Source of the DNA: a virus
Virus record (IMG/VR): IMGVR_UViG_3300045988_082153
Location: 1-64,000 of that record
Length of the DNA: 64,000 nt
Direction: 5' to 3' (one strand)
The notes under the pieces are model-generated. The model was given only the letters and a program-made list of their open reading frames with translations. It had not been told where the DNA came from and did not search any database. Shown here piece after piece: positions 9,614-33,968 of the stretch. Made by a program: the position numbers and the translations under genes. Every line of letters starts with the position of its first letter. Within the stretch, counting starts at the first letter, position 1.

Positions 9614-9649
9614 ACGATTTTTGATGAACAACAAAATAGAATTGAAATT

Positions 9650-11146: not shown

Positions 11147-11151
11147 TTTTT

Positions 11152-11185: not shown

Positions 11186-11347
11186 CATTTTGTAGTATCT
11201 CAGAAAGTAAAAAAAGAACTTCAAACTCGAAGTCTTTTTGTCGTCGTTGTTGTGGTATTATACGACGTAAGGAGTATAATATATATCTATATTCCTTTAT
11301 CCTTTATGTTTATATAACATTCGTTATATCTATACGCGCGCGCGAGG

Positions 11348-11731: not shown

Positions 11732-11839
11732 GAAGAGCATGAAAACAAAAACGACCCATCCTCACGGACAGGTCGAAGCCTAAAAAACTATGAGTAAACA
11801 AAATGAGTCGGTCTAAAAGTAGATGAAATAGAGACTGGC

Positions 11840-12178: not shown

Positions 12179-12284
12179 ATTGATATGTTTTGTGTTGCGC
12201 CGTTGGCGCAAAAGTTAAAAGTACTGGGCAAAGATACATTACTAATTTAGCGCACGATTTATAACTTTTGAAACATAAAACGAT

Positions 12285-12793: not shown

Positions 12794-14002
12794 ATGAGTA
12801 ATTGGACAGAAGAACAGCAGGAACAGTACGAGCAGGGCAATGATGGTGGATATACCCCACCTAAAGGTTCGCTTGACTGGGCCGAGCAGCCTACACAGCC
12901 AGAGCCAGCACCGAAAGGGACGGAGGCATGGACCGAGCAGCCTACACAGCCAGAGCCAGCACCGAAAGGGACGGAGGCATGGACCGAGCAGAACAGCGGA
13001 GGCAATGCACCGGAGCCGTCGGAGTCGAAAGAACCACCAAAGACAGATGTGGCACCACCTGCCGACAAGCCAGCCGGTGTGTCGCCACACAACGACACGA
13101 TGGGCTACGACCAGCAGATAGCAGCCTTGCAGGAAGCCGCTAACCGCGTGAAGCCGGAAACCGAGGAGGAACGCAAGAAGAGAGAACGCAGAGAGAAGTC
13201 AGCGAAGATTGTTTCAGCTGTCAGCGACGGTCTGCAAGCGTTGAGCAACCTTTTCTTCACTACTCGCGGTGCTCCTAACATGTATGACCACAAGGAGGCA
13301 AGCCAGCTCACGCCATTGCAGGAGAAACTGGAGAAGCTGAAAGCTGAACGACAAGCCAACGCGGACAAATACCTCCAGTATTCACTCAAAATCGGTGACG
13401 CACAGAATGAGCGTGCCAAGACCTTGCGAGAGATGGAAGCTGAGCAGGAAAAGCAAAAATTGGCACGTGAAAAGGCACAACGTGAGCAAGAAGAGCACGG
13501 ATGGCTTGCGGCATTGCAGCCAGACAAGCAGCGTGAGCAAGCTGGTAAGGCTACTAAAGCCGAACAGGAGGCTGTTACCGCCAAGGCAGAAGCGGACAAT
13601 GCTCCTGATCTCTACAAGGCAAAGGTTGATACCGAAAAGGCACGAGGTGAGGCACAGAGAGCGTCGGCTGCATCAAGCCGGGCAGCGGCTACAGACCATT
13701 ATGCTTCGGCAAGAGCGCACGACCGCTCCAACAACGACGAGTTCAGTGCATGGGACGAGAATGGACGCGAACACAAGTTCAGAACGGCAGCAGCTGCGGA
13801 GGCTTTTGCCAAACAGCACGGCACATTCGAGGAGACCGATGTCACCTCTACAAGCACAACTGACAGCGAGACCAACGGCAAGTCCACTACTACCTACAAG
13901 AAGAAAAGTGGCTATGCCAAGCGCGTAGTTCCCGATAATACGCCCCCAAGCAGAAGACGCGGAGGCAATAAAGATAATACACCACCAAGCAGAAGAAGAT
14001 AA
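12794..14002 (+). CDS. repeat-containing charged coiled-coil protein (virion-associated, hypothetical)
   Basis: 402 aa. Internal 17-aa tandem repeat, long E/K/A/R helical region, duplicated DNTPPSRRR C-terminus. The stop shares one nt with the ATG of the giant gene (TAATG). Confidence 0.55.
   Translation: MSNWTEEQQEQYEQGNDGGYTPPKGSLDWAEQPTQPEPAPKGTEAWTEQPTQPEPAPKGTEAWTEQNSGGNAPEPSESKEPPKTDVAPPADKPAGVSPHNDTMGYDQQIAALQEAANRVKPETEEERKKRERREKSAKIVSAVSDGLQALSNLFFTTRGAPNMYDHKEASQLTPLQEKLEKLKAERQANADKYLQYSLKIGDAQNERAKTLREMEAEQEKQKLAREKAQREQEEHGWLAALQPDKQREQAGKATKAEQEAVTAKAEADNAPDLYKAKVDTEKARGEAQRASAASSRAAATDHYASARAHDRSNNDEFSAWDENGREHKFRTAAAAEAFAKQHGTFEETDVTSTSTTDSETNGKSTTTYKKKSGYAKRVVPDNTPPSRRRGGNKDNTPPSRRR
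12882..12991 (+). repeat. 51-bp in-frame tandem repeat (2 full copies plus 8 nt)
   Basis: CCGAGCAGCCTACACAGCCAGAGCCAGCACCGAAAGGGACGGAGGCATGGA starts at 12882 and 12933, with a partial third copy from 12984. It encodes EQPTQPEPAPKGTEAWT x2. Confidence 0.9.
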
Positions 14003-17000
14003 TGGCACAAGTAAACGATAATGACGACATCAAGTGGCTCTACGGCAAACTGAAAGCCAAGGGCTACAATATTGGCAGTGAAGCAGAGTTCAAGTCTTCG
14101 CTTGCCAACGGTGAAGACCGCAAGTGGTATTACGAGAAGGCCAAGGGCATGGGGCTTGACATGGGCAACATGGCCGACTTCGAGAGTATGTATGCACCAA
14201 AGGCGGCACCGGCACCCAAGAGGAAAGCCCCATCTTCTGGACAGCGGAGGCCAGCCTCAGCCGTTTCGGCATCCCCGGAACAGCCAAAGCAGCAGAAGCC
14301 GAAGGGCACGCCTATGACGGAGCAGGACAAAATCCGCATGAGCTTGCAGATGGGCCAGATGAAGCAGCAGGTGCAGCAGGGCATTGCCAACACCAATGCC
14401 AAGATTGGTCGCATGATGGAGCCGTTGACACAGAAAGGACGCGAGCGACGCAGACTTGGAGAGTTCCAAGCGCGTATGGCTGGCACTCCTACTCATGTCG
14501 TCGGCTTCAACACCGCATCCCCGGCTCCAGCAAGTAGTGGCGCACGTGGCGGCAGTCGGCAGAAGCCGGTGCAGAGCGAGCAGTCGCCTCAGCCATACGG
14601 CGTGAAGTATGAGAACGGCAAGGCGAAAACCCAGTGGGTATTGCCCGACGGTACGCTCACTACATCACTTATAGAGGCCAACCAAGCCGAGTATGAGGCA
14701 AGAACGGCACGTCTCGCCCACCAATTCCAAAACCGTATGAAGGAGAACGGACTTGACCCTAACAAGCCCGAGGACGTTCGCAAACAGGCGCAGCTGGACT
14801 ATGAGGCTCCTATGCGAAAGGCCATTGAAGACGAGTGGCAGCGTGCCGAAGCCGAGGACAGAGCGGCTGATGAGGCGTACCGCAAGGATATGGAACGTGC
14901 TGAAGGTGGCAGTTTCTGGGATAGGTTGAAGAAATCTATCACTCCTCTTGGTCCCGATGGTATGCCATTGCGACGAGGTGACGAGACTTTGCGCGACATC
15001 AAACGAGCAGCCAAGCGTCAGGACACGTTCAATCTGGAGAAGATGGCGCAGTCGGTGTTGCAGAATATGCCACAGGAGTATAAGGATAATCAGATGCTGA
15101 ACTACAGCCGCTATTTCCGCGAGCATCCGTCGGAGCTGAAAGGCAGAACGGTGTCGCAAGCTGCAAAGGAAGCCCTGCAAGGCGAGGTGTACCACGCTAC
15201 GTATGAGCGTGCAGTGCAAGCACGAATGCCTAAGAGTAAGACGGAGTTCCTTCTTCGCAAGGTTGCAGACCAGCCTTTCTTCTCACAGACGATTGCCGAC
15301 AATATGGCAGCACGTCTATTCTCCCACTCCATCGGAACAGAGGCCGCCGACATGGACGCGATGAGCAGATATGGCACAGATCATCGTGCGCTCGACATCA
15401 CTGGTACCGTTTTGAATATGGCTATTGACCCGACTACCTATATTTCGGGTGGTGTTGGTAGCTTTGCAGGTAAACAAGCCTTGAAACTGAGTGGCAAAAT
15501 GGCACTTAAAGGCGCAAGCAAGGAAGCTGCAGAGCGTTACGTCGGTCGTACACTTGCCGGACGTATGGTTGCAGGAGTGGCCGCAGGTTCTGCCAACTTC
15601 GGTACATTCGAGGGCTTGAAGAACATGCAGCAGCAGATGAGGCTGGGCGGAACATTGAACCCGGAAACTGGCGAGTATGAGTTTTCAGCTGGCGACATGT
15701 TGAAGGCGACCGGGCACGGCATGTTGCTCGGTTCGGTTACCGGTACCCTATCTCCAGTGTTGGGCAATGTGTCTGACAAGTTGGTGAAGGCCACCGAGAG
15801 CACGGCTGGCAAGGTGGGCATCCGTGCAGGAGAGCTTATGACCTCTACTGTTGCCGAGGGAACTATTTTTGCTACTCCCGAATGGATCGAGAACGCACAG
15901 TTAGCAGACGACGACCCAAGAAAGCGCAAGGCTATGGACATCTGGACGGACAACATGGCTATGATGTTGGGTTTCAAGGTAAGCCACGGCATCAAGTCGG
16001 CACCACAGGTTATTGCCGGTCTTCGTCCTATAGCTGAGCCTAAGACCATGGAGGAGCGCAACCGCAACCGAAGAAGTTTTGCAGAGAGACTACGTAAGCG
16101 CATGGATGCGAGTCCGCGTGACCTCGACTTCACCAAGGAGGAACGTGAGGAACTCAGACGCAACGGATATGGTGACCTTGCATCGCTCTTCACTCGCACA
16201 CCTAAGCAGCCGACAAAACCAAAAGCCAAGCCGACCATGACGGACGGCAAAACCATGACCTTTGACGTTGACTACCAACATGCAGAGGCCAAGCGTGTGA
16301 GCAATCCGGAGTTTGACGGCTACGAAGCTATGGAACGCCTCATGCAGGACCCGAACGTCAGTCAGAGCGCAAGAGCGAAGGCATATTATATCCTCACTGG
16401 ACGTATGTTGCCGATGGGCACCGTCACTGGTTATACAACCAATAAGGATGCGAACGGCGTGACTGTACAGGCTGTGACCGCACAAGGCGAGGTTGTAACG
16501 AGCCGCCACTTCAAAACTGAGGAAGGGGCAAAGAAGGAGGAGGCCAACATCATGCGTCAGGCCGAGCTTAATAGTGTGGACGTTGGTGAACGCTACAAGG
16601 AAGCAGCCGCCAATGCCAAGGTTGTGCAAGCCGCTGTTGAGTCTGTTGCACCCGGTGCCGACTTTGCCACTGTCATGCGCAACTACAAGGTTGTGAAGGA
16701 GGGCGACAAGGATGCTATTGCGGCCTATGGCAAGATGGTTGAGGATATAGACCGCGCCATTGAAGCCAACAAGACAATGGCAGACGGTGAACGTCCGGAA
16801 GCCATCCGCGCATCAATCAAGGAGGAAACCGGCGTGGACGTTGACGCTACACTACGCAAGGAGCCGAAAAACCGCACCGAAGAGGAGCAAGCAGCTGTAG
16901 AAGACTATATCAAGCGTTTGTTCCCAGAACAGAAGAGCGAGGAGGCAGGAGCCAGCGCAGAGGCAGAGCAGCCTATGTCGGAGGCAGAGTCAGCCGCCGC

Positions 17001-20000
17001 AGCCGCATACGACCAAGCACGTCTGCTTTGGGATAAGGTGGAGAAAGGCGATACCGACGCTAAGGCCGAGGTAGATGCCATTACTTTGCGTATGCAGGAG
17101 GCTTACCAGATGTGTGAGGATGCCTTCGGTGCTGACGCTGAAATGCGCATTGCAGAAATAAACGAAGACCCTTGGCCGCTTGTCAACAATCCGGAACTAA
17201 GCGAAGACCAGCAGGACGCTGTACTCTACTATGTCAATGCCAAGGCAGCAATGGAGGGCGTTATGGACGCTTCCAATGAAGCCGCCGACGGCAAGCGCAA
17301 GGAGGTTGAAGCCAATGTGGAGCGACACACCCATAAGGATATGGGCGTTGTCCAGCCTGCAACCATGAAGGTTGACGACAAGCCGGTGTACGTTGTCAAG
17401 GGCAATGTCGTGATGCTCCCCGATGGTTCCGGCATTGACGTGCGCAATTCGGATCAGAGTATTGTTATCTGTGATGCAGAGACTGGCGAGTATAAGTTTG
17501 CCAGCCCGGACCAACTGTTCTCTCTTGGTGAGGCCATCGACCCACAGACAGAACTCGATGAGGCATACGCAAACATTCAAGCCGAGCACGAAACCGTGCT
17601 TGGTGTACCAGAAAACGGTGAAAACGTACAGGGAAACGGTGAAAACGTATCACAGCTTACCGATGAGCAGTTGCAACAGTACGCCCATAGTGCCTTCAAT
17701 GAAGCCACACAGAGCAACGGTATCACCATTCCGCAAGAGCAAGCCGAGCAGTTGCAGCAGCACAACCAACAGATGTTGGAGCAGGAACAACAGCGCAAGG
17801 AAGAGGAGGCAAACCGCCAGCCTACCGCATTGGAGCATGTACCCATCAACGAGGAAACCGGTGAACCGATGTTTGAGAAGGCAGACCGCGAGACAGCCCT
17901 TGATGCCCTCAATGAGGTTACCGGAGGTAACGATGAAAATACTACCGCCATCGTGAGAGCGCAAGTAGAACAGGCTACCAAGGCACTTGAAGCGTTGAAG
18001 AAGAAGGAACCCACAAAGAAAGCTCCTTCTCTGAAAGGTTCACCAATGGCAATGGTAAAGGCGCAGCAGGAAGCAGAGGCCAACTACAACACCGCCATGG
18101 AAGAGTATAACGCCCAAGTAGCCGCAGCAGAAGAGAACTTGAACGCATGGTCGCGCATCAACTCCCTTATGAATGACAGAAAGCGTGCTATCCGTGAGCA
18201 GCAGGAGGCAGAGCGCAAGGTTCGCGAGGAAAAGCTACACGCCGAAGCCGTTGCACGTCTGGAGGAAGACAAGCGCATTGCCGCTGAGAAAGCAGCCGAG
18301 CAAGAGGCCGTCGGCACTCATGCCGTGAACCCGAAGATAAAAGCAAAGTGGGACGGAGCCACCAAGGTTGAGGGCAATCCTAATGCTATCACCCTTGCAG
18401 ATGGTTCTACAATCCGTGGTCACTACGTCCTCACTGAGGCAGGAGCAGCCACAGCCAGCCATGACGTGAACAATGCCTACGAGCCTACTGAAGGTTTCCC
18501 GGTTGATGAGAATGGTGAGAGCGTGAATGACCGTGACTACAAGCGTGACAAAGACGCGCAGCGCATTGTTAGGGATATGGCAGACAGCTACGACAGCAGA
18601 GCTTTGCAGACACCAGTCATTGTCAGCAAGGACGGCGTTGTGCTTTCGGGCAACAACCGCACTATGTCGGGCGAAATTGCAGCAAAGAACGGCACAGACA
18701 AGGCGTATGTGGACCACTTGCGCGAGTTTGGAGCCATGTTCGGTTTCACTCCCGAGCAGATAGACGGCATGCAACATCCGCGTGTTGTCTTTGTTCCAGA
18801 TGAGGAACTGCCATACGATGCAAGTACGTTTGCACGCTTCAACGCAGAACAGCAGAAGAAGCAGAGCAAACCTGAGCACGCCGTGAAACTTGGCAAGATT
18901 GTTCCTGACAATGTGTTCACAAGCATCACCAATGACATCAGCCGCTTTGACCGCATGTCGGACTACTATGCCGACGACAAATCAGTGGCTTCTGCCATCA
19001 GTCAGTTGTTGGATGCAGGAGTTATTAACGAAATGCAGTTGCCGGAGCTTCGCACTGGCAATGCTTTGTCGGCAGCAGGTAAGGAACTTATCGAGAACAC
19101 ACTTATAGGCAAGGTCTTCCAGACTTCGCCCGATGCCGTGCGTCAGATTATCAGCACACTGACACTTCGTCAGTCTGTTGTTATGGGCTTGAACGAGATT
19201 GCCAATAACCGCACACTTGCCAAGAGCGGCTATGACCTTAGCAAGGAATTGGCAGCAGCCGTTGATCTTGTGAGTCGTGCCAAGTCTGACTCGCCCGAAA
19301 TCTATAAGGAAGGTATGCCGGTATCTCCTTACGGCAGACAGAAAGGGCTGTTTGACGACGAATACGGAGACAGTCGTGTAACCGATGGCGTTACGTTGCT
19401 CCTTGCCGACCTGCTGAACAGCGGAAAGCCGAGCGACTTGCGCAAGGTTCTCTCTACATACAATAATGAGGCTGCATCACCTGCTGCAGGTCAGATAGAC
19501 ATGTTTAGCGGTGACGTGAGCTCTAAGGAAGAAATTCTCAAAAATGTAAACGAATATTTCAGAAATGCTACACCAAAAGAACAACAAGCCCTCATCGACG
19601 CAGCCGTTGCAGAACGCAAACGGAGAGCAGAAGCCGCAGAGCCAGCTGGAGGAGACGAGGCAAGCGAACAAGCTAAGGTTGTTGCTGGGAGCGATGCAGA
19701 GCCTCAACAGCCAGTCGTAGCCAGTGAAGAACCAGCTAAGGGTAACAATCCCGATGCCGACGCATTGGCGAAGGAAGCCGAAGAAAAACTGAGCGAGCGC
19801 ATCACCGACACAGACGACGAGTGGACGGAGCCAAGCGAATATGGCGAAATCTACAAGCATCGTATGTTCGTTGATGGCAAGGAAGTTATCAAGGTTGACG
19901 CTCCTGACAAGAGCAAGAATTATCCCGGAACCTATTATGAGATTGACGGCAAGCAGTTTGGCGACCTCTACGAAGTAGCCAACTATATTGACGGCAATGA

Positions 20001-26000: not shown

Positions 26001-29000
26001 CCTCGGTTTTGCAACAGCCATGCAGCGCGGTGTGAAAGGTGTTGACCCTTCATACAGTAAGAAGTCGCAAGGCGTGTACTTGAAGACGCAAGCCATATTG
26101 GAGAAGAATAACGGTCGCAATGTTATCTTCGCCACTGGTACGCCTATCAGTAATACAGCAGCAGAGATTTGGACTTTCATGCGTTATCTCATGCCAAAGG
26201 ACACCATGAAGGAATACGGTATCTACTACTTTGACGACTTTGTGCGCAACTTCGGCAATATACAGCAGATGCCAGAGTTCAACACAAGCGGCAAGTTCAA
26301 AGAAGTGAACCGTTTTGCAGGATATGTGAACCTGCCCGAATTGGTTCGTATATGGTCAGGGGTAGCAGACACCGTGCTGACCAAAGACCAGACGGAACTT
26401 GTGAAGAAGATACCAGAAATGGAGGGCGGCAAGGCGCAGGACATCTATTTACCACAGACACGCGCTCTTCGCAGTGTGATGAAATATGTGCGTGAAGAAC
26501 TTGAACGCTTTGACCAGATGAGCGGCAAGGAGAAGAAGGAAAACAGCAGCATACCTCTCACTATGTATGGTATTGCTCAAGGAGCCGCTGTTGATGCCCG
26601 ACTTGTGGAAATGCACGCAGAGGATGATCCGAGGAGTAAGACTAACGAAGCCGTACGCCAAACCTTGCGTTCGTTGAAAGAGACTGACGACTATAAGGGT
26701 ACTGTAGCCATCTTTGCCGACCACTACCAGAATAAGCGCAGCGGTTTCAACCTGTATGAGGACATCAAGAAGAAACTCATCCAGCAGGGTATTCCCGAAA
26801 GCGAGGTTATCGTAATGAAGCCCGGCATGACCATCAAGAAGAAGTTGGAAATCTTCGACAAGGTTAACCGAGGCGAGGTGCGTGTTATTCTCGGTAGTAC
26901 TGCTACCCTTGGTACTGGTGTGAACATACAGGAACGTCTGCACACCCTTATACACCTTGATGCGCCAAACCGTCCGATGGACTACACGCAACGCAACGGC
27001 CGCATCTTGCGACAGGGCAATCTGCACAAGCAATGGAATAAACCAGTCCGTGTGCTTCGTTTCGGTGTGGAAGATAGTCTTGACGTAACTGCATATCAGC
27101 GATTGAAGACCAAAGGTGCGATTGCTGATAGTGTTATGGAGGGTGACCGACTGATGCAGGACAGCATGAATAACCGTGTGCTTGAAGAGGAAGAAGATGT
27201 GTTCGGCGACACAGTGGCCCAACTCTCGGGTAGTGAATACGCCCTGCTGAAAAACAATGCGGAGAAGAATGTGCGCAAGTACGAAAGTCGCAAGAAGCAG
27301 TGGGAAGCCGACCAAACCTATATTCACAATGCCAAGCCAAAGTTGGAGGGACAGATAAAGGCAGCAGAGCAACGGGCGGAGGAAGCTAACGCCCAGCTGC
27401 TTGCAGTGCAAAAGGCATTCCCCGATGGCAAGTTCACAGAGATAACTGTTGGCAAACTGAAATTTGCTTCGGTTGATGCCATGGCTGACTTCATCAAGGA
27501 ACACAACAAGAAAATCCTCGATGCAGTAAAGGCGATGAAAGAGAACCCCGGCAATAACGTCCAGACAAATACTCTTACTTTGTCATTGGGAGGTTACGAC
27601 TTTGTTGTCAAGACAGAGATGTCGCGAGAGACTGTGAACAATGGCGGACTGCTGTTTGCCGAGATACATCGTAGAATGAGCTACTCATGCCCTGAACTTG
27701 GTCTGAATAATGTTCCTGTAAAGCAGTCGCTATTGCGCAATGCCGTTGAGGACATCACCGAGAATGTAATCACAGGTAGGGACTTTGCCGAGCGGTTCGA
27801 CATTGCTACACGTATGGTACAGCACGGCAAATCAGAGTTGGAACAACTAAAGCAGCGTGAAGGTAAGCCGTTTGAGTTTGGAAAGGAACTTGAAGAAGCC
27901 AAGCGTCAGCTTGAGGAATATTCCGAGGCCATGAAGGTAGAAATGGCAGAAAAGGAGAAGAAATATGCCGAAATGGACGCAAGTGTAGAAGCTGCTTCAG
28001 ATGTAGTCACCGACGATGAGGACGAGACCGCAGAAGACAAGACGAAGTTCCGTTTGCTTGATGAGGATGATCCAAAGGCGATGGAGCTGGAGTCTTTGCC
28101 GGAGAGTGAGTTGGTTCCTGTTTACCGTAATGTGCAAGCCTTTGAGGATGATGCACTGGGTTCACCTATGGCATTTACCGATGCCGAGACAGGCGAGCGC
28201 AGAACATTGGAAGGCAGACGTTGGAACTATTCTGCACCTCCAAAGGTGGAACTCTCCGAGGAGCAGCAGCGCAAGTTGGACGAACTCAACAAGAATGGCT
28301 ACATCATGGTTGACGGCAAAAAGAGTACAGAGTTGCAGATCAATGACGGTCTGAAATTCGTGAAGCCTAAGACCAAGGAGGCACAGTTGCAGTACTTCCT
28401 GAAGAAGAACCCCGAAGACAAGGGCTTGTGGGCAGCATACGACCCATACGACCATGCCATTGAAACTCCGCTGAACACGCAGTTTGGCGAGGCATACAAG
28501 AGACCGAACCTTGTTGTGGTGCGTAGCCTCATCCCAAAATCGGAGATAGACGAGCCGTTCCACGCAGACTATGCTCTGTTGCCTACCGGTGCCCATCAGT
28601 GGAACAATGGTCGCACACTGTATCTTTCACGCTGGAGCAAGATAGACAAGGTGCTTACCCGTGAGGAGGAAGCTAAGCTCATTGACGAGTACTGGAAGAA
28701 GCATCCGGGAAAGCGTGAGGAGCTAAAGACCCACCGTGACTACAACCGTTTTGTGCCACAAGTGCGCATAGAGTTGGAGAAGATGGGTTACCGCTTTGAA
28801 CTTGATGGCAAGGAGTTGACACCGGAGGAGAGTCTTGCACTCGACAAGCAGAACTGGGAAAGCCGCGATGTTATCCCCGGACGCGAGGGACACACTCCAT
28901 TCGTCAGCAACGAAGACATAGCACGCATCAATGCGAAGATGGCCGGCAAGTGGGTAGGCGAACCGAAGGAAGCAATGGAAAGTGCAATGAGCGATAGAGT

Positions 29001-32000
29001 GACCGAGTTGTCCGAACGTCTGCATACTCCAGTGCGCATCATACGTACAGAGGAAGAAGTGGCTGCATTACCTTCCGTGCGCCAGCGCAGAATGAAGGGT
29101 AGCTTCAATCCTATGACCGGCGAGGTGACTATTGTTGTTCCCAACAATGCTAACATGGCAGACATTGAGAATACGTTTGTGCATGAGGTTGTGGGTCACG
29201 ATGGTTTGCGCGTGCTGTTCCCTGATGAGGCTAAGCTGAACAATGCCCTTGATGAACTCTATCGTGTGTCTAAGGACGAGATACGCGGTACCATTGACCG
29301 CATGGCGCAGAAGATGTACGATGCCGAGGTGGACCGCATACGTGAGAAGAAACGCAAGGAGCATGTAGCCAATGGAGAGGATGCCAACGCTTCATACTAT
29401 GCAGACATGGCAGCAGCACATGCCGAAGCCGGAAAGAAGCGTGAGCAGTTCAAGCGTGATGCAACAGAGGAATATGGAGCCGACCTTGCCGGACGTATCG
29501 GTGAGAAAGGCTTCGAGATGATGAGTGCCGAAGAACTTACGTTCTGGGGCAAGTTGAAAGCTATGCTCCAAAAAGCTCTACAAAAATTGTTGGACGGATT
29601 GAAAATCCCCGGCAAGAGAAAGTGGGGTGATAAGGACTGGGCGTTTGTTCTGCATGAGGCATACAAGCGTAAGAAGAATGGTGGTAAGCCTACTGTGTTC
29701 GATGCTGCTGATACTGAGGTTATGCGCAGAAGAACTGGCTTTGGAGATACTAAGTTCAGTGATGGAAAGCGTGAGCAACAGACTGCTAACGAACGTTTCA
29801 ACAATGAACTTACACGCTATCAGAATGGCGAAATGGATAAGAACGAAATGCTACATCTTGGCAGACCACAAGGTGTAATGCGTACTTTCCTCCCAAACTT
29901 GCCTATTGTTATGCGTCAGCGTGTAATAAAGAAAGGTTCGGAGAAGAAGCATGACGTAGATGTATCTGCCATAATGAACATGCCGCAGCACTTATCTTCG
30001 CCTATATTCGTGTTCCAACGTAGCGAAGACACCATTGGCGTACTTACTGACATGAGAGACCGCAACGGCAAAAACGTATGTGTGGCTATTGAATTGAAGC
30101 GACAGATACAGCAAGGTGCGGAATATCTCGAAGTGAATGATGTGCGTTCGTTCCACGGCAGAGAATTCAAGAACATCGTAGAACCGATTGCGAATAACAA
30201 GACATTGAAGTGGGTGGATAAAGAAAAAGGACTCGCTTATCTCTCCTCAGCGTCACAACCGGTTCAGCAGGAAATAGACAAGCAAGTCCTTGATACTGCG
30301 ACAAAGGTAGTCAAAGATTTTGTAAATCCCAAAGTTTCTGACGAAAATATTGCAGATGAGGGCATTATGTTCCGCGATGGTGACATGGGACTTGAAGAAA
30401 CCATCACTAAGATGAAGGTTGAGGCAAGCCAAGCGAACGCCGACAACTGGCAAGCCAAGCAGGACGCAATGAGAGCCATCGGTGGCAATCTGAACAAATT
30501 GCGTCAGGCAATGGCACGTCAGAGAGAGTATGACCTATCAACCGTTAAGAGCATAACAGACCTTGCAAAGGTGTTGCTTGAAAACGGATTGCTCGATGAT
30601 CTGAGCAAGTATGAGACAAAGCGCATCCTATCAGCCGTGAACAATGTACATGGCAAGCAGGACGTAAGTGATTACGTACAGAAGGTTATGGACATCATGG
30701 TTGACAACCAGCTACGCATGGGAGCTAACCAGCTGGGCAAACTACTTTCCATCCGTGGAAGCCGCGTTGACGCGCGAGGTATTGAGGTGCAAGGACAGCT
30801 TGACCCAGAAGGCCAGCGTATAGCGCAGGTGGTTAGGAAAGCTACTTCCTTACCAAAGGAGAACATAGAGGAGCGTATTGCAGACTGCACCAATCGTATG
30901 AGTAGTGACGACAATGCCGTAGCCGAGGAAGCAGCTATCGAGTACAGCGGTCTGTTGCTTGCCCATCAGTTTGTAGAGGACATCACCGAAAGCAAGGCAG
31001 AGGAAAAGGCTCTTCGTGAAAGCATTAAGGAAGCCAAGGCCGACTTGGATGCCGGAACGATGGAAGCCGATGCTTACCGTGAATACGTGGAGTCAACCAA
31101 CGATGCCATCCGTCAGAATAAGATAGAGCGAGCCGAAGCCTACCGCAGCATAGTGGAGCAAGCAGGCGGTGTTCTTGGTGGCAGCGTTGAGCGAGCCAAG
31201 GCATGGCGTGAGGCAGAGAAGCAGCGCGTTGAGACCATCCATCACAATGCCAACTCCGATATGACCGGCAGACCTAACGACGAGCATCACAAGGAAAGCA
31301 AGGCACAGAAGATAGCCAATAACAGTATAGTGCGCTTTGTTCTTGCACCTTTAGGCACGTTCGACCAGATGCTGAGAATGTTCGGAAAGAAAAGCGTGAA
31401 CGGTGAGGGCTACTTGTGGAACCGCTATATGCGTGGATGGGTTGAGGCTACCGAAAAGGAGTACACCGGTTATCAAAACGCCTTGAAGACGCTCGACGAG
31501 AAGGTTAGCGACCTATTCGGCAAGAAGATGAAATGGGGCGACCTATTCTCTTTGGAGCGCAACCTTCCAAAAGCGACCGTTACCTTCTGGGACGGTGGCG
31601 AGCAGAAGGCACACGAACTGACACAAGGCAACCTTCTGTATATATACATGGTTGACAAGATGGCAGACGGCCGCATGAAGTTGCGCCGTATGGGCATCAC
31701 CGAGGAAGATGTGGAGAACATAAAAGAATTTGTTGATCCTCGCTTCTTAGAACTTGCCGACTGGATGCAGGACGAGTTCCTTGTGGAAAAACGCAACGAG
31801 TACAACGAGGTGCATAAGCGCATGTTCGGTGCTTCAATGGCAGCGATTGAGAACTACTTCCCTTTGAAGATACTTGCCAATGCGAGAATTGAAGAAGTGG
31901 ACGTAGCCGACGATACAACCGACACCGCATTACCGGCGACCTCAACCGGTAGCATCATCAAGCGCAGACGCAACAATCTTGCCCTTGACGTGATGGGAGC

Positions 32001-33924
32001 AGACGCATTCAGCGTTATACTCGACCACATTCAGCAGATGGAACGTTGGGCATCCTTTGCAGAGTTCAATCGCGACTTGAACACCTTGTTGTCATACAAG
32101 CGTTTCCGCAACCAAGTTATGAACATGACGAGTGTTTATGGTGGTGGCAAAACTCTGTGGAAGAATTTCCGCAATGTGTGCAGTATGGCCGCAGGAGCCT
32201 ATCGCCCACCAATCGCAGCCCTTGACAAGGCCGCAGTGAATGTGGCGAAGGGCGTAACGGCAGCCAAGGTTAGTTTCAGAGTGTTCACGGCATTAAAGCA
32301 GTTCCTCTCTATGCCAGCTTATCTTTCTGACAGCAGCCCTGTATATCTTGCAGGAAACATTGCCAATCCGATAGGAGCTTGGAAGTGGTCAATGGAAAAC
32401 CTTCCACTCTTCGAGAAGCGTTGGAAGAGCCGCATGGCAGGAGACCCAAGACTGATGAAGAGTGAAATGGACTGGAAGATGTGGCAAAACCGCGCTGTTG
32501 AAATAGCCTCACGTATCGGTATGTCTCCTAATGCCTTTGTCGATGCACTGACAGTTGCCATAGGTGCACACTCGATGTATCAGACCAAGAAGAAGAAATA
32601 TCTTCGTTACGGCTATGATGAAGAGACGGCAGAGAAGCGAGCCAAGCAAGACGCTACTATTCTGTTCAACCAGACACAGCAGTCGAGTGAAAGCGCGTTC
32701 CTCTCTACGATGCAGACCGACCGTTCATGGTTGAGTGTTCTGTTCACTGTGTTCAGAAACTCTTCGATGTCGTACACACGTCAGCTGTATGATGCACTCC
32801 GTAACCTCAAACACCGCTTTGAACCCGGTTACAAAGGACTCACAGAGGAGTATCTTGCCAAGCAGATGCGCAGAGATGGCATAGACCCAGACAAGGCCGA
32901 CCAGAACGCCAAGAGCGAGTATAGAAGAAGCCTGATGCGTGATATAGTCCGCGTAGGCGTGTTTGGCTATCTGTTGCAGTTTGCTTGGAACTTGGGAGCC
33001 TATCTGCCCTATCTCCTCTTAGGTGACGACAAGGACGAGAAGAGCGACATGTGGCATGACATCTTCTGCCATACTATGTTCGGCAGTATAGAAGGCTTGA
33101 CTGGAGGTGACGTGATGAGTGCTGTAGGTAATGGCTTTGCTAAAGGCGAAGGTTTGAACCTATTCTCCGCTTCAAAGGATATGCCTCTTAGTTCAGACTT
33201 GCAGAACATTGTAAACAAATGGAACAAAGACAAGGTTGCCGCCATGAACGACGTGACCAACTTGATGGTTCAGTCTGGTATAGGTGTCAATCCCCAATCG
33301 CTGACAGATGCAGTGGTTGCCATCATGGACTACTGTGGTGACGACGCAAACACCTCTCGCGAGTGTGCCCTGCTTATCACGCGCATCATCAACTGCCCAC
33401 AAAGTCAGATCGACAAGATTTATTTTGACGAGCTTAACGCAACGGCAGCAGAGGCGCAAGGCATGACCCCGGCAGAGATAGCCGAGCGATATGCCCGATA
33501 TAAGATGCACAGAGGCGCACCGTTGACCGGATGGGCGTACACTGATGAAGCTCGCGACTCCGTAATGACTGCCCTGCAGAACCGAGTGCTTACGAAAGCC
33601 AAGGAGAAGTTGAACAGCAGAATGGAGACTGAGGAAACCAAACAGTTGCTCAGTGATTACGATGCTGTTGCCAAGCAAGAGACCGCATTGTCGAAGATAA
33701 AGAAGACGGACCGTGCAGCCTACCACGAGGGAATGAAGCAGCTACGCCAGTCGAACGACATGCGCCAGCACATGCGCTTGAAGCGATACAAGCATGACAT
33801 GAATGAACTCACGTCGAAGTATCTACGCTGCAAGAGTGCAGAGGAACGAGACTCGATTGTCAGCACGATGTTCAGTACACGTGCGAAGATGCTTGAAGAC
33901 ATCGACAGATTGAAGCAACAATAG
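14002..33924 (+). CDS. giant polyvalent protein, 6640 aa (ParB-like + PPase-like + N6-adenine MTase + SNF2-type helicase + HExxH metallopeptidase + hydrophobic terminal regions); probable packaged/ejected anti-restriction protein
   Basis: Single uninterrupted 19,923-nt ORF. Domain motifs are listed in the sub-features below. Located between virion genes and portal. Confidence 0.9.
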   Translation: MAQVNDNDDIKWLYGKLKAKGYNIGSEAEFKSSLANGEDRKWYYEKAKGMGLDMGNMADFESMYAPKAAPAPKRKAPSSGQRRPASAVSASPEQPKQQKPKGTPMTEQDKIRMSLQMGQMKQQVQQGIANTNAKIGRMMEPLTQKGRERRRLGEFQARMAGTPTHVVGFNTASPAPASSGARGGSRQKPVQSEQSPQPYGVKYENGKAKTQWVLPDGTLTTSLIEANQAEYEARTARLAHQFQNRMKENGLDPNKPEDVRKQAQLDYEAPMRKAIEDEWQRAEAEDRAADEAYRKDMERAEGGSFWDRLKKSITPLGPDGMPLRRGDETLRDIKRAAKRQDTFNLEKMAQSVLQNMPQEYKDNQMLNYSRYFREHPSELKGRTVSQAAKEALQGEVYHATYERAVQARMPKSKTEFLLRKVADQPFFSQTIADNMAARLFSHSIGTEAADMDAMSRYGTDHRALDITGTVLNMAIDPTTYISGGVGSFAGKQALKLSGKMALKGASKEAAERYVGRTLAGRMVAGVAAGSANFGTFEGLKNMQQQMRLGGTLNPETGEYEFSAGDMLKATGHGMLLGSVTGTLSPVLGNVSDKLVKATESTAGKVGIRAGELMTSTVAEGTIFATPEWIENAQLADDDPRKRKAMDIWTDNMAMMLGFKVSHGIKSAPQVIAGLRPIAEPKTMEERNRNRRSFAERLRKRMDASPRDLDFTKEEREELRRNGYGDLASLFTRTPKQPTKPKAKPTMTDGKTMTFDVDYQHAEAKRVSNPEFDGYEAMERLMQDPNVSQSARAKAYYILTGRMLPMGTVTGYTTNKDANGVTVQAVTAQGEVVTSRHFKTEEGAKKEEANIMRQAELNSVDVGERYKEAAANAKVVQAAVESVAPGADFATVMRNYKVVKEGDKDAIAAYGKMVEDIDRAIEANKTMADGERPEAIRASIKEETGVDVDATLRKEPKNRTEEEQAAVEDYIKRLFPEQKSEEAGASAEAEQPMSEAESAAAAAYDQARLLWDKVEKGDTDAKAEVDAITLRMQEAYQMCEDAFGADAEMRIAEINEDPWPLVNNPELSEDQQDAVLYYVNAKAAMEGVMDASNEAADGKRKEVEANVERHTHKDMGVVQPATMKVDDKPVYVVKGNVVMLPDGSGIDVRNSDQSIVICDAETGEYKFASPDQLFSLGEAIDPQTELDEAYANIQAEHETVLGVPENGENVQGNGENVSQLTDEQLQQYAHSAFNEATQSNGITIPQEQAEQLQQHNQQMLEQEQQRKEEEANRQPTALEHVPINEETGEPMFEKADRETALDALNEVTGGNDENTTAIVRAQVEQATKALEALKKKEPTKKAPSLKGSPMAMVKAQQEAEANYNTAMEEYNAQVAAAEENLNAWSRINSLMNDRKRAIREQQEAERKVREEKLHAEAVARLEEDKRIAAEKAAEQEAVGTHAVNPKIKAKWDGATKVEGNPNAITLADGSTIRGHYVLTEAGAATASHDVNNAYEPTEGFPVDENGESVNDRDYKRDKDAQRIVRDMADSYDSRALQTPVIVSKDGVVLSGNNRTMSGEIAAKNGTDKAYVDHLREFGAMFGFTPEQIDGMQHPRVVFVPDEELPYDASTFARFNAEQQKKQSKPEHAVKLGKIVPDNVFTSITNDISRFDRMSDYYADDKSVASAISQLLDAGVINEMQLPELRTGNALSAAGKELIENTLIGKVFQTSPDAVRQIISTLTLRQSVVMGLNEIANNRTLAKSGYDLSKELAAAVDLVSRAKSDSPEIYKEGMPVSPYGRQKGLFDDEYGDSRVTDGVTLLLADLLNSGKPSDLRKVLSTYNNEAASPAAGQIDMFSGDVSSKEEILKNVNEYFRNATPKEQQALIDAAVAERKRRAEAAEPAGGDEASEQAKVVAGSDAEPQQPVVASEEPAKGNNPDADALAKEAEEKLSERITDTDDEWTEPSEYGEIYKHRMFVDGKEVIKVDAPDKSKNYPGTYYEIDGKQFGDLYEVANYIDGNEQPLSAKIEAASAEVNTDPTEAQKEAGNYKKGHVQVGTFDITIEQPQGSVRKGTDADGKQWESKMNNTYGYIRGAVGVDGDHIDVFLSNDIDGWNGRKVYVVDQYNPDGSFDEHKVMLGFNDQDEAKGDYLANYEQGWENGRRIDITGVNLEDFEKWIESSKRKTKPFGEYSSVKKDVVEINTPEEAGYSITPSTYTNKKGKTSDVSLLTFDNDLTADQERAVKEFAKERTGEGRFAPARGWKDRESGGWMFRSEEDARKAAEMVGNEQAVADNQPMTAQELRDAVEPKKPTASKKTAAKKPANRIENVPTEEPIEPEKPKYEVSDEEMNGLMNDIRDILGIGDDEGDAGVKFRDPDELTAEQRQKLMSVGQRLAMAMVERGNESFGNYASMMVKALGDKVRPWLKAFYGGLEYVPGYDKYALTPYEEVKAFDVENFDKPNKDVMAQANMIVEEGKVQVAAEKANKELKATRNEQRKETEKQTAANTDAVAVEAESVASEATALAETSSDEQALAGAAERVDETLNKVNEQLALLGYYEADEVEKDYNEAYGYMRNAEKKAVKDAANLASQLISDLNLSHYEASHSKQTDKKGNRKKKPLAVSNISPIGGDVSIHLPLEEGRELYLTIGVEPRAAKGVDGFGGSDLEVTHIMFRVDHPEGTGNDRYGRNVFVDSNVTYSDLLKQVQREAYKYLIGSGVTNEGEYAAGDKVQYSTDGGRTWTDAVVVQPNDEGGIRIDTGLAPVMWVNAHPDQLRHKPSESAEPKHEAVGDFYEDGINEDAVAALPEDTAIQLHVVDILNPGMTDHSMKSKIESLNTLLPKISDKKLSELDKEYGDDKDMGTHIKAEVARRAKDGGVQPTSSEKPADKPKPASKKNATKKVKPEQPVGDLFAGLFDNTSDNGLQGNDEAVRTETVPADNGGQQQGLRGSKESTRKTVAQEGGRPDGGRGGQSTGKDRAVSAGLHGLTEPKNTRNNHSERGADHAPTSVNGRIEANIKAIELAHELLESGETATPEQMSVLRQFSGWGGLGAAFSDGGYDWKQRERNKKIRELLGEEAYEQAVMSANSAYYTPAYVVDTLWDIANQLGFKGGNILEGSAGIGNILGQMPTTVSERSNIHAIEIDGTSGGILSLLYPDAKVEIQGFEQTRIPNGSVDLAITNVPFVTGLRVNDTTGDSDLSKKFHNIHDFCIAKNVRKLREGGLGIFISSNGTLDNSKALRDWVVNEGGSDFIGAFRMNNKTFGGTTVTSDIIVIRKRVNGQKSAQAIDVSSISGERTAEYEEPGARKAKQLSMDYNKYFIEHPDHMAGEMRFAFEEGDTFRPTSKGLYPVSGKDQGKMLVDFVKSFTEEDSSKATTTDHHDVSLVLDASADGKKLGEMYMKDGQIVLASFGGYYPLEVNDKKIKGHTKQECFTAYAAIKSALADVMQYQTENESDAGLKPLIAKLNKAYDAFVNTYGHFNKNNQLAWLRNDVDYPNVFSLETYKEQGDGKGGVVKTYDKADVMKGRVVEKESEPHPENVKDGVVVSMFKNGRIDVPYIASQLGKSEAEVKREIIDSGLGFEDPTTRQMEVSYQYLSGNVREKLKQAEANNENGEYSKNIKALQDVVPMNIPAHLIDFTLGSSWLDPKLYDEYVKERTDIDVHFTAAGGTWFMKAPTYGVNVEKNRAMGIVSEMLKKTIMGHELISAAIQNKSIIVSRTEKHYDGTTETITDREATAACAAKIDEIRQDFKDWARGKMQSDADLSARMEQEYNDRFNNYVPMSIPDDFVPEYFGGATHKFKMRSHQGKAIVRGTMQPLLLAHEVGTGKTFTLISTAMEMRRLGTARKPMIVVQNATVGQFAASAKELYPNAKILTLEDNDRNAEGRKNFYAKIKYNDWDMIVVPQSTFEFIPDSDERQMQFVQDKIDEKMLVLEQMREADSSGRDPITRRAEKELADLQAEMAALSEGISKKRTANNEKKKAVAKQNAAVKAQEMLDRRTDDVENFDDMGIDALLIDEAHEYKHLGFATAMQRGVKGVDPSYSKKSQGVYLKTQAILEKNNGRNVIFATGTPISNTAAEIWTFMRYLMPKDTMKEYGIYYFDDFVRNFGNIQQMPEFNTSGKFKEVNRFAGYVNLPELVRIWSGVADTVLTKDQTELVKKIPEMEGGKAQDIYLPQTRALRSVMKYVREELERFDQMSGKEKKENSSIPLTMYGIAQGAAVDARLVEMHAEDDPRSKTNEAVRQTLRSLKETDDYKGTVAIFADHYQNKRSGFNLYEDIKKKLIQQGIPESEVIVMKPGMTIKKKLEIFDKVNRGEVRVILGSTATLGTGVNIQERLHTLIHLDAPNRPMDYTQRNGRILRQGNLHKQWNKPVRVLRFGVEDSLDVTAYQRLKTKGAIADSVMEGDRLMQDSMNNRVLEEEEDVFGDTVAQLSGSEYALLKNNAEKNVRKYESRKKQWEADQTYIHNAKPKLEGQIKAAEQRAEEANAQLLAVQKAFPDGKFTEITVGKLKFASVDAMADFIKEHNKKILDAVKAMKENPGNNVQTNTLTLSLGGYDFVVKTEMSRETVNNGGLLFAEIHRRMSYSCPELGLNNVPVKQSLLRNAVEDITENVITGRDFAERFDIATRMVQHGKSELEQLKQREGKPFEFGKELEEAKRQLEEYSEAMKVEMAEKEKKYAEMDASVEAASDVVTDDEDETAEDKTKFRLLDEDDPKAMELESLPESELVPVYRNVQAFEDDALGSPMAFTDAETGERRTLEGRRWNYSAPPKVELSEEQQRKLDELNKNGYIMVDGKKSTELQINDGLKFVKPKTKEAQLQYFLKKNPEDKGLWAAYDPYDHAIETPLNTQFGEAYKRPNLVVVRSLIPKSEIDEPFHADYALLPTGAHQWNNGRTLYLSRWSKIDKVLTREEEAKLIDEYWKKHPGKREELKTHRDYNRFVPQVRIELEKMGYRFELDGKELTPEESLALDKQNWESRDVIPGREGHTPFVSNEDIARINAKMAGKWVGEPKEAMESAMSDRVTELSERLHTPVRIIRTEEEVAALPSVRQRRMKGSFNPMTGEVTIVVPNNANMADIENTFVHEVVGHDGLRVLFPDEAKLNNALDELYRVSKDEIRGTIDRMAQKMYDAEVDRIREKKRKEHVANGEDANASYYADMAAAHAEAGKKREQFKRDATEEYGADLAGRIGEKGFEMMSAEELTFWGKLKAMLQKALQKLLDGLKIPGKRKWGDKDWAFVLHEAYKRKKNGGKPTVFDAADTEVMRRRTGFGDTKFSDGKREQQTANERFNNELTRYQNGEMDKNEMLHLGRPQGVMRTFLPNLPIVMRQRVIKKGSEKKHDVDVSAIMNMPQHLSSPIFVFQRSEDTIGVLTDMRDRNGKNVCVAIELKRQIQQGAEYLEVNDVRSFHGREFKNIVEPIANNKTLKWVDKEKGLAYLSSASQPVQQEIDKQVLDTATKVVKDFVNPKVSDENIADEGIMFRDGDMGLEETITKMKVEASQANADNWQAKQDAMRAIGGNLNKLRQAMARQREYDLSTVKSITDLAKVLLENGLLDDLSKYETKRILSAVNNVHGKQDVSDYVQKVMDIMVDNQLRMGANQLGKLLSIRGSRVDARGIEVQGQLDPEGQRIAQVVRKATSLPKENIEERIADCTNRMSSDDNAVAEEAAIEYSGLLLAHQFVEDITESKAEEKALRESIKEAKADLDAGTMEADAYREYVESTNDAIRQNKIERAEAYRSIVEQAGGVLGGSVERAKAWREAEKQRVETIHHNANSDMTGRPNDEHHKESKAQKIANNSIVRFVLAPLGTFDQMLRMFGKKSVNGEGYLWNRYMRGWVEATEKEYTGYQNALKTLDEKVSDLFGKKMKWGDLFSLERNLPKATVTFWDGGEQKAHELTQGNLLYIYMVDKMADGRMKLRRMGITEEDVENIKEFVDPRFLELADWMQDEFLVEKRNEYNEVHKRMFGASMAAIENYFPLKILANARIEEVDVADDTTDTALPATSTGSIIKRRRNNLALDVMGADAFSVILDHIQQMERWASFAEFNRDLNTLLSYKRFRNQVMNMTSVYGGGKTLWKNFRNVCSMAAGAYRPPIAALDKAAVNVAKGVTAAKVSFRVFTALKQFLSMPAYLSDSSPVYLAGNIANPIGAWKWSMENLPLFEKRWKSRMAGDPRLMKSEMDWKMWQNRAVEIASRIGMSPNAFVDALTVAIGAHSMYQTKKKKYLRYGYDEETAEKRAKQDATILFNQTQQSSESAFLSTMQTDRSWLSVLFTVFRNSSMSYTRQLYDALRNLKHRFEPGYKGLTEEYLAKQMRRDGIDPDKADQNAKSEYRRSLMRDIVRVGVFGYLLQFAWNLGAYLPYLLLGDDKDEKSDMWHDIFCHTMFGSIEGLTGGDVMSAVGNGFAKGEGLNLFSASKDMPLSSDLQNIVNKWNKDKVAAMNDVTNLMVQSGIGVNPQSLTDAVVAIMDYCGDDANTSRECALLITRIINCPQSQIDKIYFDELNATAAEAQGMTPAEIAERYARYKMHRGAPLTGWAYTDEARDSVMTALQNRVLTKAKEKLNSRMETEETKQLLSDYDAVAKQETALSKIKKTDRAAYHEGMKQLRQSNDMRQHMRLKRYKHDMNELTSKYLRCKSAEERDSIVSTMFSTRAKMLEDIDRLKQQ
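15370..15900 (+). other. Gly/Ala-rich hydrophobic region of the giant protein
   Basis: ISGGVGSFAGKQALKLSGKMALKGA...LAGRMVAGVAAGSANFGTFEGL...GHGMLLGSVTGTLSPVLGNV, glycine-zipper-like segments. Confidence 0.5.
18320..18900 (+). other. ParB/Srx-superfamily-like domain (DdrB-type ParB candidate)
   Basis: NDRDYKRDKDAQRIVRDMADSYDSRALQTPVIVSKDGVVLSGNNRTMSGEIAAKNG resembles the ParB N-terminal domain core (PviV...G..l.sGn.R). Confidence 0.5.
20071..20480 (+). other. inorganic-pyrophosphatase-like fold domain
   Basis: ITIEQPQGSVRKG...NNTYGYIRGAVGVDGDHIDVFLS...NPDGSFDEHKVMLGF parallels family I PPase signatures (EIPxGSxxK ... YGFIPxT..DGDPxDV ... D.KV). Confidence 0.45.
22920..23800 (+). other. N6-adenine DNA methyltransferase domain (DarB-like)
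   Basis: SAM motif I LEGSAGIGN (23275-23301). Catalytic motif IV NVPF (23473-23484, NPPY-type). Upstream LRQFSGWGGLG is typical of DarB/plasmid MTase-helicases. Confidence 0.8.
25290..27110 (+). other. SNF2/DEAD-like helicase domain
   Basis: Walker A GTGKT (25402-25416), DEAH box (25978-25989), FATGTPISN, ILGSTATLGTGVNIQ, and motif VI QRNGRILRQGN (26989-27021). Confidence 0.8.
29030..29300 (+). other. zincin-like HExxH metallopeptidase domain
   Basis: NTFVHEVVGHDGLRVLF with HEVVGH at 29182-29199. Confidence 0.6.
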
Positions 33925-33936: not shown

Positions 33937-33968
33937 GGACGGTGCAAGGAATTACCTTTGCACCGTCC
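33937..33968 (+). promoter_or_regulatory. strong hairpin without U-tract between giant gene and portal
   Basis: GGACGGTGCAA (33937-33947) pairs perfectly with TTGCACCGTCC (33958-33968). No T-run follows. Confidence 0.4.

Follow-up and report, generated by a model that had tools for sequence, protein, structure and literature searches.

We analyzed a 64,000-nucleotide stretch of viral DNA, positions 1 to 64,000 of IMG/VR record IMGVR_UViG_3300045988_082153 (hereafter the window), which is essentially one ~65-kb temperate podovirus-like phage genome of Prevotellaceae/Bacteroidaceae. Its structural module runs in the order gp14-family gene, 402-amino-acid (aa) gene, giant gene, portal, and terminase (Table 1), and the giant gene is the subject of this work. 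It is one open reading frame (ORF) that opens with ATG and, in the ORF listing, runs through 6,640 codons without an internal stop. A first-pass annotation, made from the sequence alone, had described this single frame as filling 31% of the window, coupled to the upstream gene by a TAATG overlap and followed by a portal gene. All of this was borne out: the frame takes up 19,923 of the 64,000 nucleotides, the upstream 402-aa ORF ends in the giant's start codon, and the ORF behind the giant encodes a P22-type portal. Over the same interval, the giant's frame contains one stop, the terminal one, in 6,641 codons, whereas the two remaining forward frames have 292 and 451; at a guanine-cytosine (GC) content of 0.51, such an open frame cannot be due to chance.

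Table 1. Features of the giant gene (residue numbers are those of its protein) and of the surrounding phage genome.
Feature	Coordinates	Strand	Remarks
Giant ORF, phage-type polyvalent DarB-like protein	14002..33924	+	6,640 aa, 742 kDa, pI 5.4
Tandem leader, two ~33-aa units, aa 5-37 and 35-66	14014..14199	+	Consensus LEDNDNRKKLYDALKKDGYDVGSYEEFESSLGDPE
Accessory N-terminal region, aa 68-1443, no known family	14203..18330	+	13-47/143 loci
ddrB-ParB domain, aa 1467-1593	18400..18780	+	PF18763, 27.9 bits (cut-off 27.6); homologues carry PF18763
InPase, polyvalent-type inorganic pyrophosphatase-like OB-fold, aa 2020-2158	20059..20475	+	PF18823, E 9e-53
Small module, aa 2176-2300, no family	20527..20901	+	115/143 loci
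Module, aa 2423-2760, no family	21268..22281	+	61/143 loci
N6-adenine DNA methyltransferase, aa ~2989-3253	22966..23760	+	29% identity to P1 DarB, E 8e-20
SNF2-type helicase, aa 3776-4339	25327..27018	+	SNF2-rel_dom, ResIII, Helicase_C (Pfam); P1 DarB, E 2e-19
Optional module, aa 4690-4998, no family	28069..28995	+	Mixed beta/alpha fold in AlphaFold2 (AF2) model; absent from L020, L030
Candidate zincin-like metallopeptidase module, aa 4998-5256	28993..29769	+	Invariant HExxxH and distal Glu
Swappable cassette slot, aa 5257-5445, MuF_C here	29770..30336	+	GC 0.44 versus 0.51 for whole ORF
C-terminal module, aa 5446-6640, ~1,195 aa, almost wholly alpha-helical	30337..33921	+	No Pfam, PHROG, or PDB counterpart
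C-terminal ~65-aa helical tail	33724..33921	+	hhalign of tail families A6 and A7: probability 94.4%, E 9e-8
165-aa gene, candidate T7 gp14-family internal virion protein	12285..12782	+	Gly-rich hydrophobic N- and C-termini
402-aa low-complexity, highly charged protein, PEP-type repeats	12794..14002	+	Stop overlaps giant's start (TAATG)
Perfect 13-bp GC-rich hairpin	33937-33968	+	Between giant's stop and portal start; RNA fold -25 kcal/mol, z -5.9
P22-type portal	33983..35941	+	Pfam P22_portal E 3e-44; phrog_156 E 3e-96
Tyrosine-integrase-like gene	9560-11146		Phage_int_SAM_5; phrog_216
Large terminase	35950-38079	-	
Major capsid protein (MCP)-like gene	39491-41143		
Second giant gene, 2,740 aa	42403-50625		phrog_14959, 2,668 bits, function unknown; 3' of capsid genes
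Diversity-generating retroelement (DGR)	Variable region 50483-50592; template repeat 51437-51546; reverse transcriptase 51582-53138		Target ORF 42403-50625
956-aa protein	57566-60436	-	phrog_32516 end to end, 882 bits, function unknown; edge of structural region

A single frame of this length could also be an assembly or annotation artefact, that is, a chimera of several genes or a frame open by chance. Some relatives are indeed split (L019 and L024 at 3,611 aa, L023, L036, and L002, whose ORF has a frameshift and a run of N), and a word-indexed protein database lists only fragments of at most 3,438 aa for relatives. We scanned IMG/VR with a protein-guided search using the central 1,810 aa as the query, which returned 243 related stretches, and fetched 80 loci. 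Uninterrupted complete orthologous ORFs of 4,393-6,938 aa were present in about 46 of these, including one of 6,642 aa (L074) in a contig with 96% nucleotide identity to the window over 25 kb. The isolated temperate Bacteroides phage BKO1-TP3 (PQ571269.1, 64,956 bp) also encodes an intact 5,553-aa orthologue, gp55 (XPO94969.1), annotated as 'DarB-like antirestriction', and its gene adjoins the portal gene. BKO1-TP3 was recovered solely by protein-level search; a megablast search with the complete ORF gave no match among 50,697 phage records. Because the fetched loci hold intact ORFs, the suspicion that the relatives are split into pieces was ruled out and the word-indexed database is unfit for judging sizes; its short entries reflect the database or fragmentary assemblies. 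An artefact is effectively refuted, and its remaining probability is minute: intact ORFs occur in an isolate genome and in about 46 independent contigs, a library of protein representatives contains many giants of 4,000-7,091 aa, the frame has no internal stop, and a conserved leader and tail lie at opposite ends of the same ORF. These data confirm that the giant ORF is a real single gene and not an assembly chimera.

The first-pass annotation also called the size of the protein an extreme case, which was overstated. The C-terminal 1,195 aa, used as a HMMER query against 1.84 billion representatives, retrieved 1,311 clusters. Of the 149 representative homologues listed, 6 have at least 6,640 aa, as do 4 of the 47 viral ORFs that are complete. 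Since relatives reach 7,091 aa, the giant belongs to the upper tail of the size range rather than standing apart from it.

Enzyme domains and modules without a family

ParB, InPase, N6-adenine methyltransferase, SNF2 helicase, and MuF_C regions lie in one uninterrupted ORF, which supports the initial reading of the giant as a polyvalent protein with similarity to P1 DarB. BLASTP aligned the methylase, the spacer, and the helicase colinearly with P1 DarB (E 8e-20, 2e-19, and 1e-4), with the NVPF motif of the methylase aligned to that of DarB. This motif IV (aa 3158-3161) is invariant in the orthologue alignment A3 and accompanies a motif I of sequence EGSAGIGN; compared with PDB profiles, the same alignment gave only a weak match to M.TaqI (E 0.009). 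The helicase carries GTGKT at aa 3801 and DEAH at aa 3993, with Helicase_C at aa 4230-4339, and an NCBIfam scan of the giant produced only sub-threshold helicase matches. The methylase and helicase are present in 138-139 of 143 loci. Across this part of the protein, phrog_10089 ('DarB-like antirestriction') matched aa 2845-4100 with 1,346.7 bits and aa 3900-5128 with 791.8 bits; further matches fell in the InPase region (201 bits) and at aa 5271-5497 (67 bits), all colinear over profile positions 750-3664 of 4,647.

The other enzyme-like regions proposed at first pass were recovered to different degrees. The ParB-like region matched P1 DdrB by BLASTP (E 3e-7). The pyrophosphatase-like InPase domain, found in 114 of 143 loci, additionally matched residues 637-763 of PDB entry 9b41_L ('gp19 Portal'), the C-terminal domain of that portal (E 1.6e-23). 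The giant additionally contains a MuF_C domain (aa 5310-5410, PF18819, E 1.6e-16). In PMC5512222, this domain is described as a PBECR (barnase/EndoU/colicin/RelE-like) RNase-type domain and not the MuF head domain, and the MuF head-morphogenesis domain is absent from the profile matches of the giant, where PF18819 alone was found. A weak Foldseek match to a RelE/ParE-type toxin (7vd7_A, probability 0.77), which was not significant, fits the BECR fold. Glycine-zipper and hydrophobic segments had also been claimed. Small-xxx-small motifs are enriched at aa 400-600; transmembrane-grade hydrophobicity occurs nowhere, the maximum 19-aa Kyte-Doolittle mean over the whole chain being 1.2.

A predicted HExxH peptidase had to be revised. 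No literal HExxH peptidase motif exists, as the only HE..H in the giant is HEYKH beside the helicase DEAH box, and the protein instead contains an HExxxH motif, HEVVGH, at aa 5061-5066. H5061, E5062, H5066, and E5157 are invariant across 41 orthologous modules with 27-99% identity (alignment A2), and the module occupies 98 of 143 loci. In the AF2 model of this region (pLDDT 77), a helix and three strands are followed by the HExxxH helix and a later Glu-bearing helix, and this predicted order corresponds to the zincin core. We regard the module as a likely candidate for a zincin-like metallopeptidase. An HExxxH variant is described for the metallopeptidases (MPTases) of polyvalent proteins in PMC5512222.

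Between the modules lie charged helical and P/S/G/T-rich low-complexity linkers. No family was assigned to aa 68-1443, 1600-2000, 2176-2300, 2423-2760, 4690-4998, or 5446-6640 by Pfam, PHROGs, NCBIfam, PDB profiles, or two AF2/Foldseek runs, and neither AF2 model had a significant Foldseek neighbor in the PDB. Alignments of aa 520-1279 (A12) and aa 2176-2300 (A10) had no significant PDB match, and Pfam searches with all orthologues gave no consistent family for either. The accessory N-terminal region is made up of low-complexity linkers, an amphipathic stretch rich in small-xxx-small motifs (aa ~400-680), a beta-rich stretch (~1100-1190), and charged helices.

Position-locked ends and exchangeable cassettes

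To describe the N-terminal leader, a hidden Markov model (HMM) was built iteratively and applied to 153 full-length giants with a total of 852,194 residues. It found 172 leader units, 171 of them within the first 130 residues. At least one unit was present in 93 of the 153 giants and at least two in 78, and giants without this unit have other N-terminal motifs that are likewise tandem. The segment at aa 1-68 is present in 13 of 143 loci. The leader unit is covered by neither Pfam nor PHROGs, and neither the leader nor the shared C-terminal tail was found by term searches of PMC5512222 or by Pfam and PHROG scans of the giant.

The C-terminal module nearly always forms the extreme C-terminus of its carriers in the 1,311 clusters, most of which are 4,000-7,091 aa long, and dozens of its polar and aromatic positions are invariant. 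An AF2 model from a 44-sequence alignment (pLDDT 76, pTM 0.66) has a nearly pure alpha-helical body. Foldseek found no significant neighbor in the PDB (best E 0.22, TM ≤0.1), and a PDB profile search with alignment A5 was also negative. In BFVD, 70 predicted structures matched at E ≤1e-3 with 10-22% identity. Each of them is the final chunk of a long viral protein; these proteins come from contigs of podo-, myo-, and siphovirus-like type and are labelled ART-PolyVal, MuF-C, LPD-containing, or 'nuclease'. Because these matches all end long viral proteins, the C-module is, on the evidence of predicted structures, an as yet unnamed terminal module that is widespread among the polyvalent proteins of phages. 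For one weak BFVD match, from Tenacibaculum phage Gundel, the label 'Structural protein' was not traceable to proteomics.

In four relatives (L009, L021, L020, and L025), the C-module is replaced by an unrelated ~1,035-aa module with LPD38 (E 2e-39), whereas the portal behind it keeps 99% identity. The idea of the C-module as a portal-specific docking domain was weakened by L009, whose portal is 99% identical and whose C-module is of the unrelated LPD38 type. The terminal tail is homologous across otherwise unrelated C-modules, including the type found here, the LPD38 type, and those of gp55, L063, and L073.

Nucleotide comparison with close relatives revealed blocks of 91-99% identity broken by segments without detectable similarity. 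Breakpoints recur at aa 68/517-532, 1269-1279, 1443/1817, 1900/2004, 2297/2423, and 2755/2864 in the N-terminal half and at 4690/4998, 5255/5444-5452, and 5462-5572/6426-6638 in the C-terminal half, and they lie in or beside low-complexity linkers. The ParB module (aa 1443-1817) is cleanly deleted as a unit in L032 and L005. In L002, the methylase-helicase core of ~5.4 kb (6888-12277, corresponding to 22683-28032 of the window) has no detectable nucleotide similarity and ~54% protein identity, with flanks that are 91-97% identical; even this 'core' is exchanged as a cassette. The slot occupied here by MuF_C holds PBECR1, PBECR3, or LPD3, or is empty, in relatives whose flanks are 96-99% identical. 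These comparisons show that whole modules are exchanged between near-identical phages.

The 3' edge of the slot is marked by the junction motif DFVNP at aa 5439. The general form, [NDSG]F[VE]NP, occurs 53 times in the 153 giants, compared to 1.8 expected. A longer junction peptide, A.K[VI]V..F[VE]NPK (aa 5433-5446, nt ~30298-30339), is kept in L- and P-series relatives whichever cassette fills the slot, and may act as an anchor for recombination or as a site of processing. A repeated protease site was rejected as an explanation of the motif because each protein has it just once, at the 3' end of the PBECR slot.

Comparison with known systems and a possible virion role

The architecture matches the phage-type polyvalent proteins of Iyer, Burroughs, Anand, de Souza & Aravind (2017, J Bacteriol; PMC5512222). 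Shared features are unrelated effector domains on one polypeptide encoded among the late and structural genes of a portal-terminase phage; a SNF2 ATPase/adenine methylase dyad with the phage-only InPase, DdrB-ParB, and PBECR (MuF_C) domains; an HExxxH motif of the variant form described for polyvalent metallopeptidases; and extensive mosaicism. Unlike those proteins, about half of the giant (the N-region, aa 2176-2760, aa 4690-4998, and the C-module) lies outside the Pfam LPD/polyvalent models, and its peptidase has no profile match. The polyvalent class, phrog_10089, and an annotated orthologue in a cultured phage are already known. The position-locked leader, the unnamed C-module, the shared tail, the swapping of cassettes between phages that are nearly identical, and the association with a gp14-family gene are new.

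The closest cultured counterpart is BKO1-TP3, which shares with the window a small gene, a medium gene, the giant, the portal, an oppositely oriented terminase, a second gene of 2.6-2.7k aa, and a DGR reverse transcriptase. Its gp55 is 71% identical in the methylase-helicase core and 44% in the InPase region, whereas relatedness is weak or absent over the N-terminal ~1,900 aa and over the C-terminal ~1,400 aa; it has a different C-module with a homologous terminal tail, and the giant described here is 1,087 aa longer. P1 DarB (2,255 aa) has the same colinear N6-adenine methylase, spacer, and SNF2 helicase, its gene likewise adjoins the portal gene, and the N-terminus of P1 DdrB is homologous to the giant's ParB domain. 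DarB and DdrB are separate proteins in P1, however, whereas here both are fused with at least four further modules. DarB of P1 shields infecting DNA in cis from type I restriction and depends on partners of the DarA/Hdf type for its incorporation into the head. According to the JC1 paper (PMC9144972), antirestriction by P1 also needs DarA, DdrA, Hdf, and Ulx.

Two groups of podophage proteins offer a comparison for delivery. The giants of Bcep22-like podophages (Bcep22 gp75, JC1 gp69, PEp14, and the 'PLxRFG' protein of SopranoGao) contain a DarB-like core with 27-31% identity over ~1,400-1,650 aa, take up 20-30% of a ~60-kb podophage genome, and have two small virion proteins encoded upstream. 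JC1 gp69 (DarB-like, 4,515 aa) yielded 51 unique peptides in mass spectrometry of CsCl-purified virions, and all members of its small-medium-giant trio, gp67, gp68, and gp69, were virion-detected (PMC9144972). Virion association has been shown for this group and would, by analogy, extend to the giant described here. Several Bcep22-like giants are annotated with a lytic transglycosylase and some are named PLxRFG by NCBI, neither of which was detected in our protein (for PLxRFG, with Pfam and NCBIfam); their hosts are Proteobacteria and their gene is far from the portal. Another giant with several domains is the N4 virion RNA polymerase (vRNAP; 3,500 aa). A podovirus of similar genome size packages it in its capsid and injects it into the host, and a polyvalent-type metallopeptidase region is present in it. 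In our giant, which shows no similarity to the N4 protein in sequence or fold, no RNA polymerase family was found with Pfam or PHROG, and N4 mini-vRNAP gave just an insignificant Foldseek match (E 2.4).

The gene immediately upstream of the 402-aa gene adds to this context. Pfam T7_gp14 matched 19 of 22 orthologues of the 165-aa protein, with a best E of 2.9e-7. A further precedent for packaging is the InPase domain, which is fused to a portal of solved structure in 9b41_L. We also estimated that one 742-kDa chain would need a space equal to ~0.65% of that filled by the packaged 64-kb DNA, so its size does not stand in the way of packaging.

Judging from these relatives, we think the giant is probably a head-packaged, DNA-co-injected polyvalent anti-defense protein. 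It would be expressed with the head genes, and one or a few 742-kDa copies would be placed inside the procapsid close to the portal, with the chain probably addressed through its position-locked ends, the tandem leader at one end and the C-module and tail at the other. At infection, it would exit through the portal and tail channel with the DNA and the upstream gp14-family protein. By extension from P1 DarB, the N6-adenine methylase, moved along the entering DNA by the SNF2 translocase, would shield that DNA in cis from restriction. The DdrB-type ParB, the InPase, and the PBECR RNase-like cassette might attack or blunt other host responses of a nucleic-acid or nucleotide-based kind, and cleavage by the zincin-like HExxxH module may release functional parts of the chain. 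Whole effector cassettes are swapped among co-circulating phages by recombination within the low-complexity linkers, which would let the repertoire track host defenses. Of this picture, the architecture, the homologies, the gene context, the mosaicism, and the constraint on the termini are observed, and packaging, injection, processing, and the targets are deduced.

Several results weigh against this interpretation and call for caution. About 45% of the chain is without assigned function, and the ParB domain barely exceeds its Pfam threshold. The peptidase module had no Pfam match in any of its 41 members and no PDB profile match, hhalign with P1 DdrB was negative, and so was Foldseek against the PDB, where the multi-domain query may have cost sensitivity. 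No SLT, lysozyme, lytic transglycosylase, or other envelope-breaching domain was detected in the giant with Pfam, PHROG, or NCBIfam. The 165-aa protein of this phage itself scores 17.6 bits for T7_gp14, below the 27-bit cut-off; hhalign against the T7 gp14 sequence and a PDB profile search (A8) were both negative. Alignments of the N-region (A12) with T7 gp15 and of the C-module (A5) with T7 gp16 had hhalign probabilities below 1%, and the C-module does not co-vary with the portal. The precedent for packaging comes from relatives with ~27-30% core identity rather than from this phage or BKO1-TP3, and the BKO1-TP3 paper does not discuss the gp55 gene.

The order gp14-family gene, 402-aa gene, giant mirrors T7 gp14/15/16 and the virion-associated JC1 trio. 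Along with the position-locked ends, a huge all-alpha C-module conserved in more than 1,300 clusters, and the adjoining portal gene, this order would suit a giant that is chiefly a structural ejection ('ejectosome' or internal-core) protein, a functional analogue of T7 gp16 or the P22 ejection proteins, in which large N- and C-terminal helical parts build a trans-envelope conduit and the enzyme cassettes are secondary passengers. This is the main rival to our reading, and we consider it unlikely as the chief function. The giant and the 165-aa protein lack hhalign similarity to the T7 proteins, the chain has neither a transglycosylase domain nor a transmembrane-grade hydrophobic segment, its C-module is replaceable by the unrelated LPD38 module with the portal unchanged, and its N-terminal region is found in only 13-47 of 143 loci. 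Given the negative profile comparisons with gp14, gp15, and gp16 and the missing transglycosylase, the analogy to T7 is one of organization and not of family membership. Such a conduit is nevertheless compatible with a packaged anti-defense protein, and the two may be combined.

Packaging has a competitor in a multi-enzyme protein that stays in the cytoplasm. Produced in lytic growth or by the prophage, it would methylate progeny or prophage DNA and manipulate host metabolism inside the producing cell. Orphan methylases of phages commonly act in the producing cell; moreover, the case for packaging in this phage is indirect, and the hairpin 3' of the stop shows merely the giant gene's own 3' boundary. 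The gene, however, lies within the head-gene cluster, to which it is coupled in translation, its distant orthologues are abundant in virions, and the strict conservation of both termini is hard to explain for a soluble enzyme, which leaves a cytoplasmic role quite improbable compared with co-injection of a packaged anti-defense protein.

More speculatively, and with some doubt on our part, the position-locked ends might form a generic protein-injection chassis, such that any cassette recombined between them is loaded and delivered with the DNA. The C-terminal end of this tentative chassis would be either of the all-alpha 1,195-aa type or of the LPD38 type, both finishing in the shared ~65-aa tail. 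If so, the all-alpha C-module would be a new widespread ejection, translocation, or encapsidation machine with no solved structural relative, and the leader a new capsid-targeting or first-out signal. Proof of a general cargo-delivery chassis would raise the interest of these ends; as they stand, the C-module and leader are well-defined starting points for describing new families and for structural studies.

Polyvalent proteins were predicted computationally in 2017 and have seen little experimental study; among the examples compared here, functional data exist only for P1 DarB and N4 vRNAP. Because BKO1-TP3 is cultured and near-identical prophages reside in isolates, packaging, processing, and anti-restriction can be tested directly. 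The cassette swaps found in nature amount to isogenic-like comparisons of effector sets, and the cassette junctions mark possible insertion points for foreign cargo in engineered phage protein delivery.

Host and remaining phage genome

The giant's core was found at 99% identity in an isolate assembly of Leyella (Prevotella) stercorea (MSK.21.24) and at 94% identity within a 1.23-Mb contig of Prevotellamassilia timonensis. The remaining genome matches to the core come from Bacteroidales genomes and metagenome-assembled genomes of gut and rumen. The scans yielded 243 viral contigs and 60 genome loci, and among Bacteroidales phages of the human and animal gut the lineage is very common. The P. 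timonensis and L. stercorea contigs (L092, L098) contain near-identical copies of the element, and the window carries an integrase-like gene; the element is a temperate phage with cultured lysogens.

Near the N-terminus of the 2,740-aa product of the second giant gene are patches that weakly resemble scaffold, peptidase, and minor head proteins. Its C-terminus contains the DGR variable region, and the protein probably binds the receptor or is associated with the tail. The 110-nt template repeat of the DGR lies just 5' of the reverse transcriptase (phrog_1423, E 5e-89) and is 93% identical to the 3' end of the 2,740-aa ORF. All eight mismatches are A in the template and T, G, or C in the target, which is the hallmark of an adenine-specific DGR. 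BKO1-TP3 has the same DGR layout.

The hairpin between the giant gene and the portal gene has no T-run behind it, and could be an mRNA 3'-end, stability, or attenuation element.

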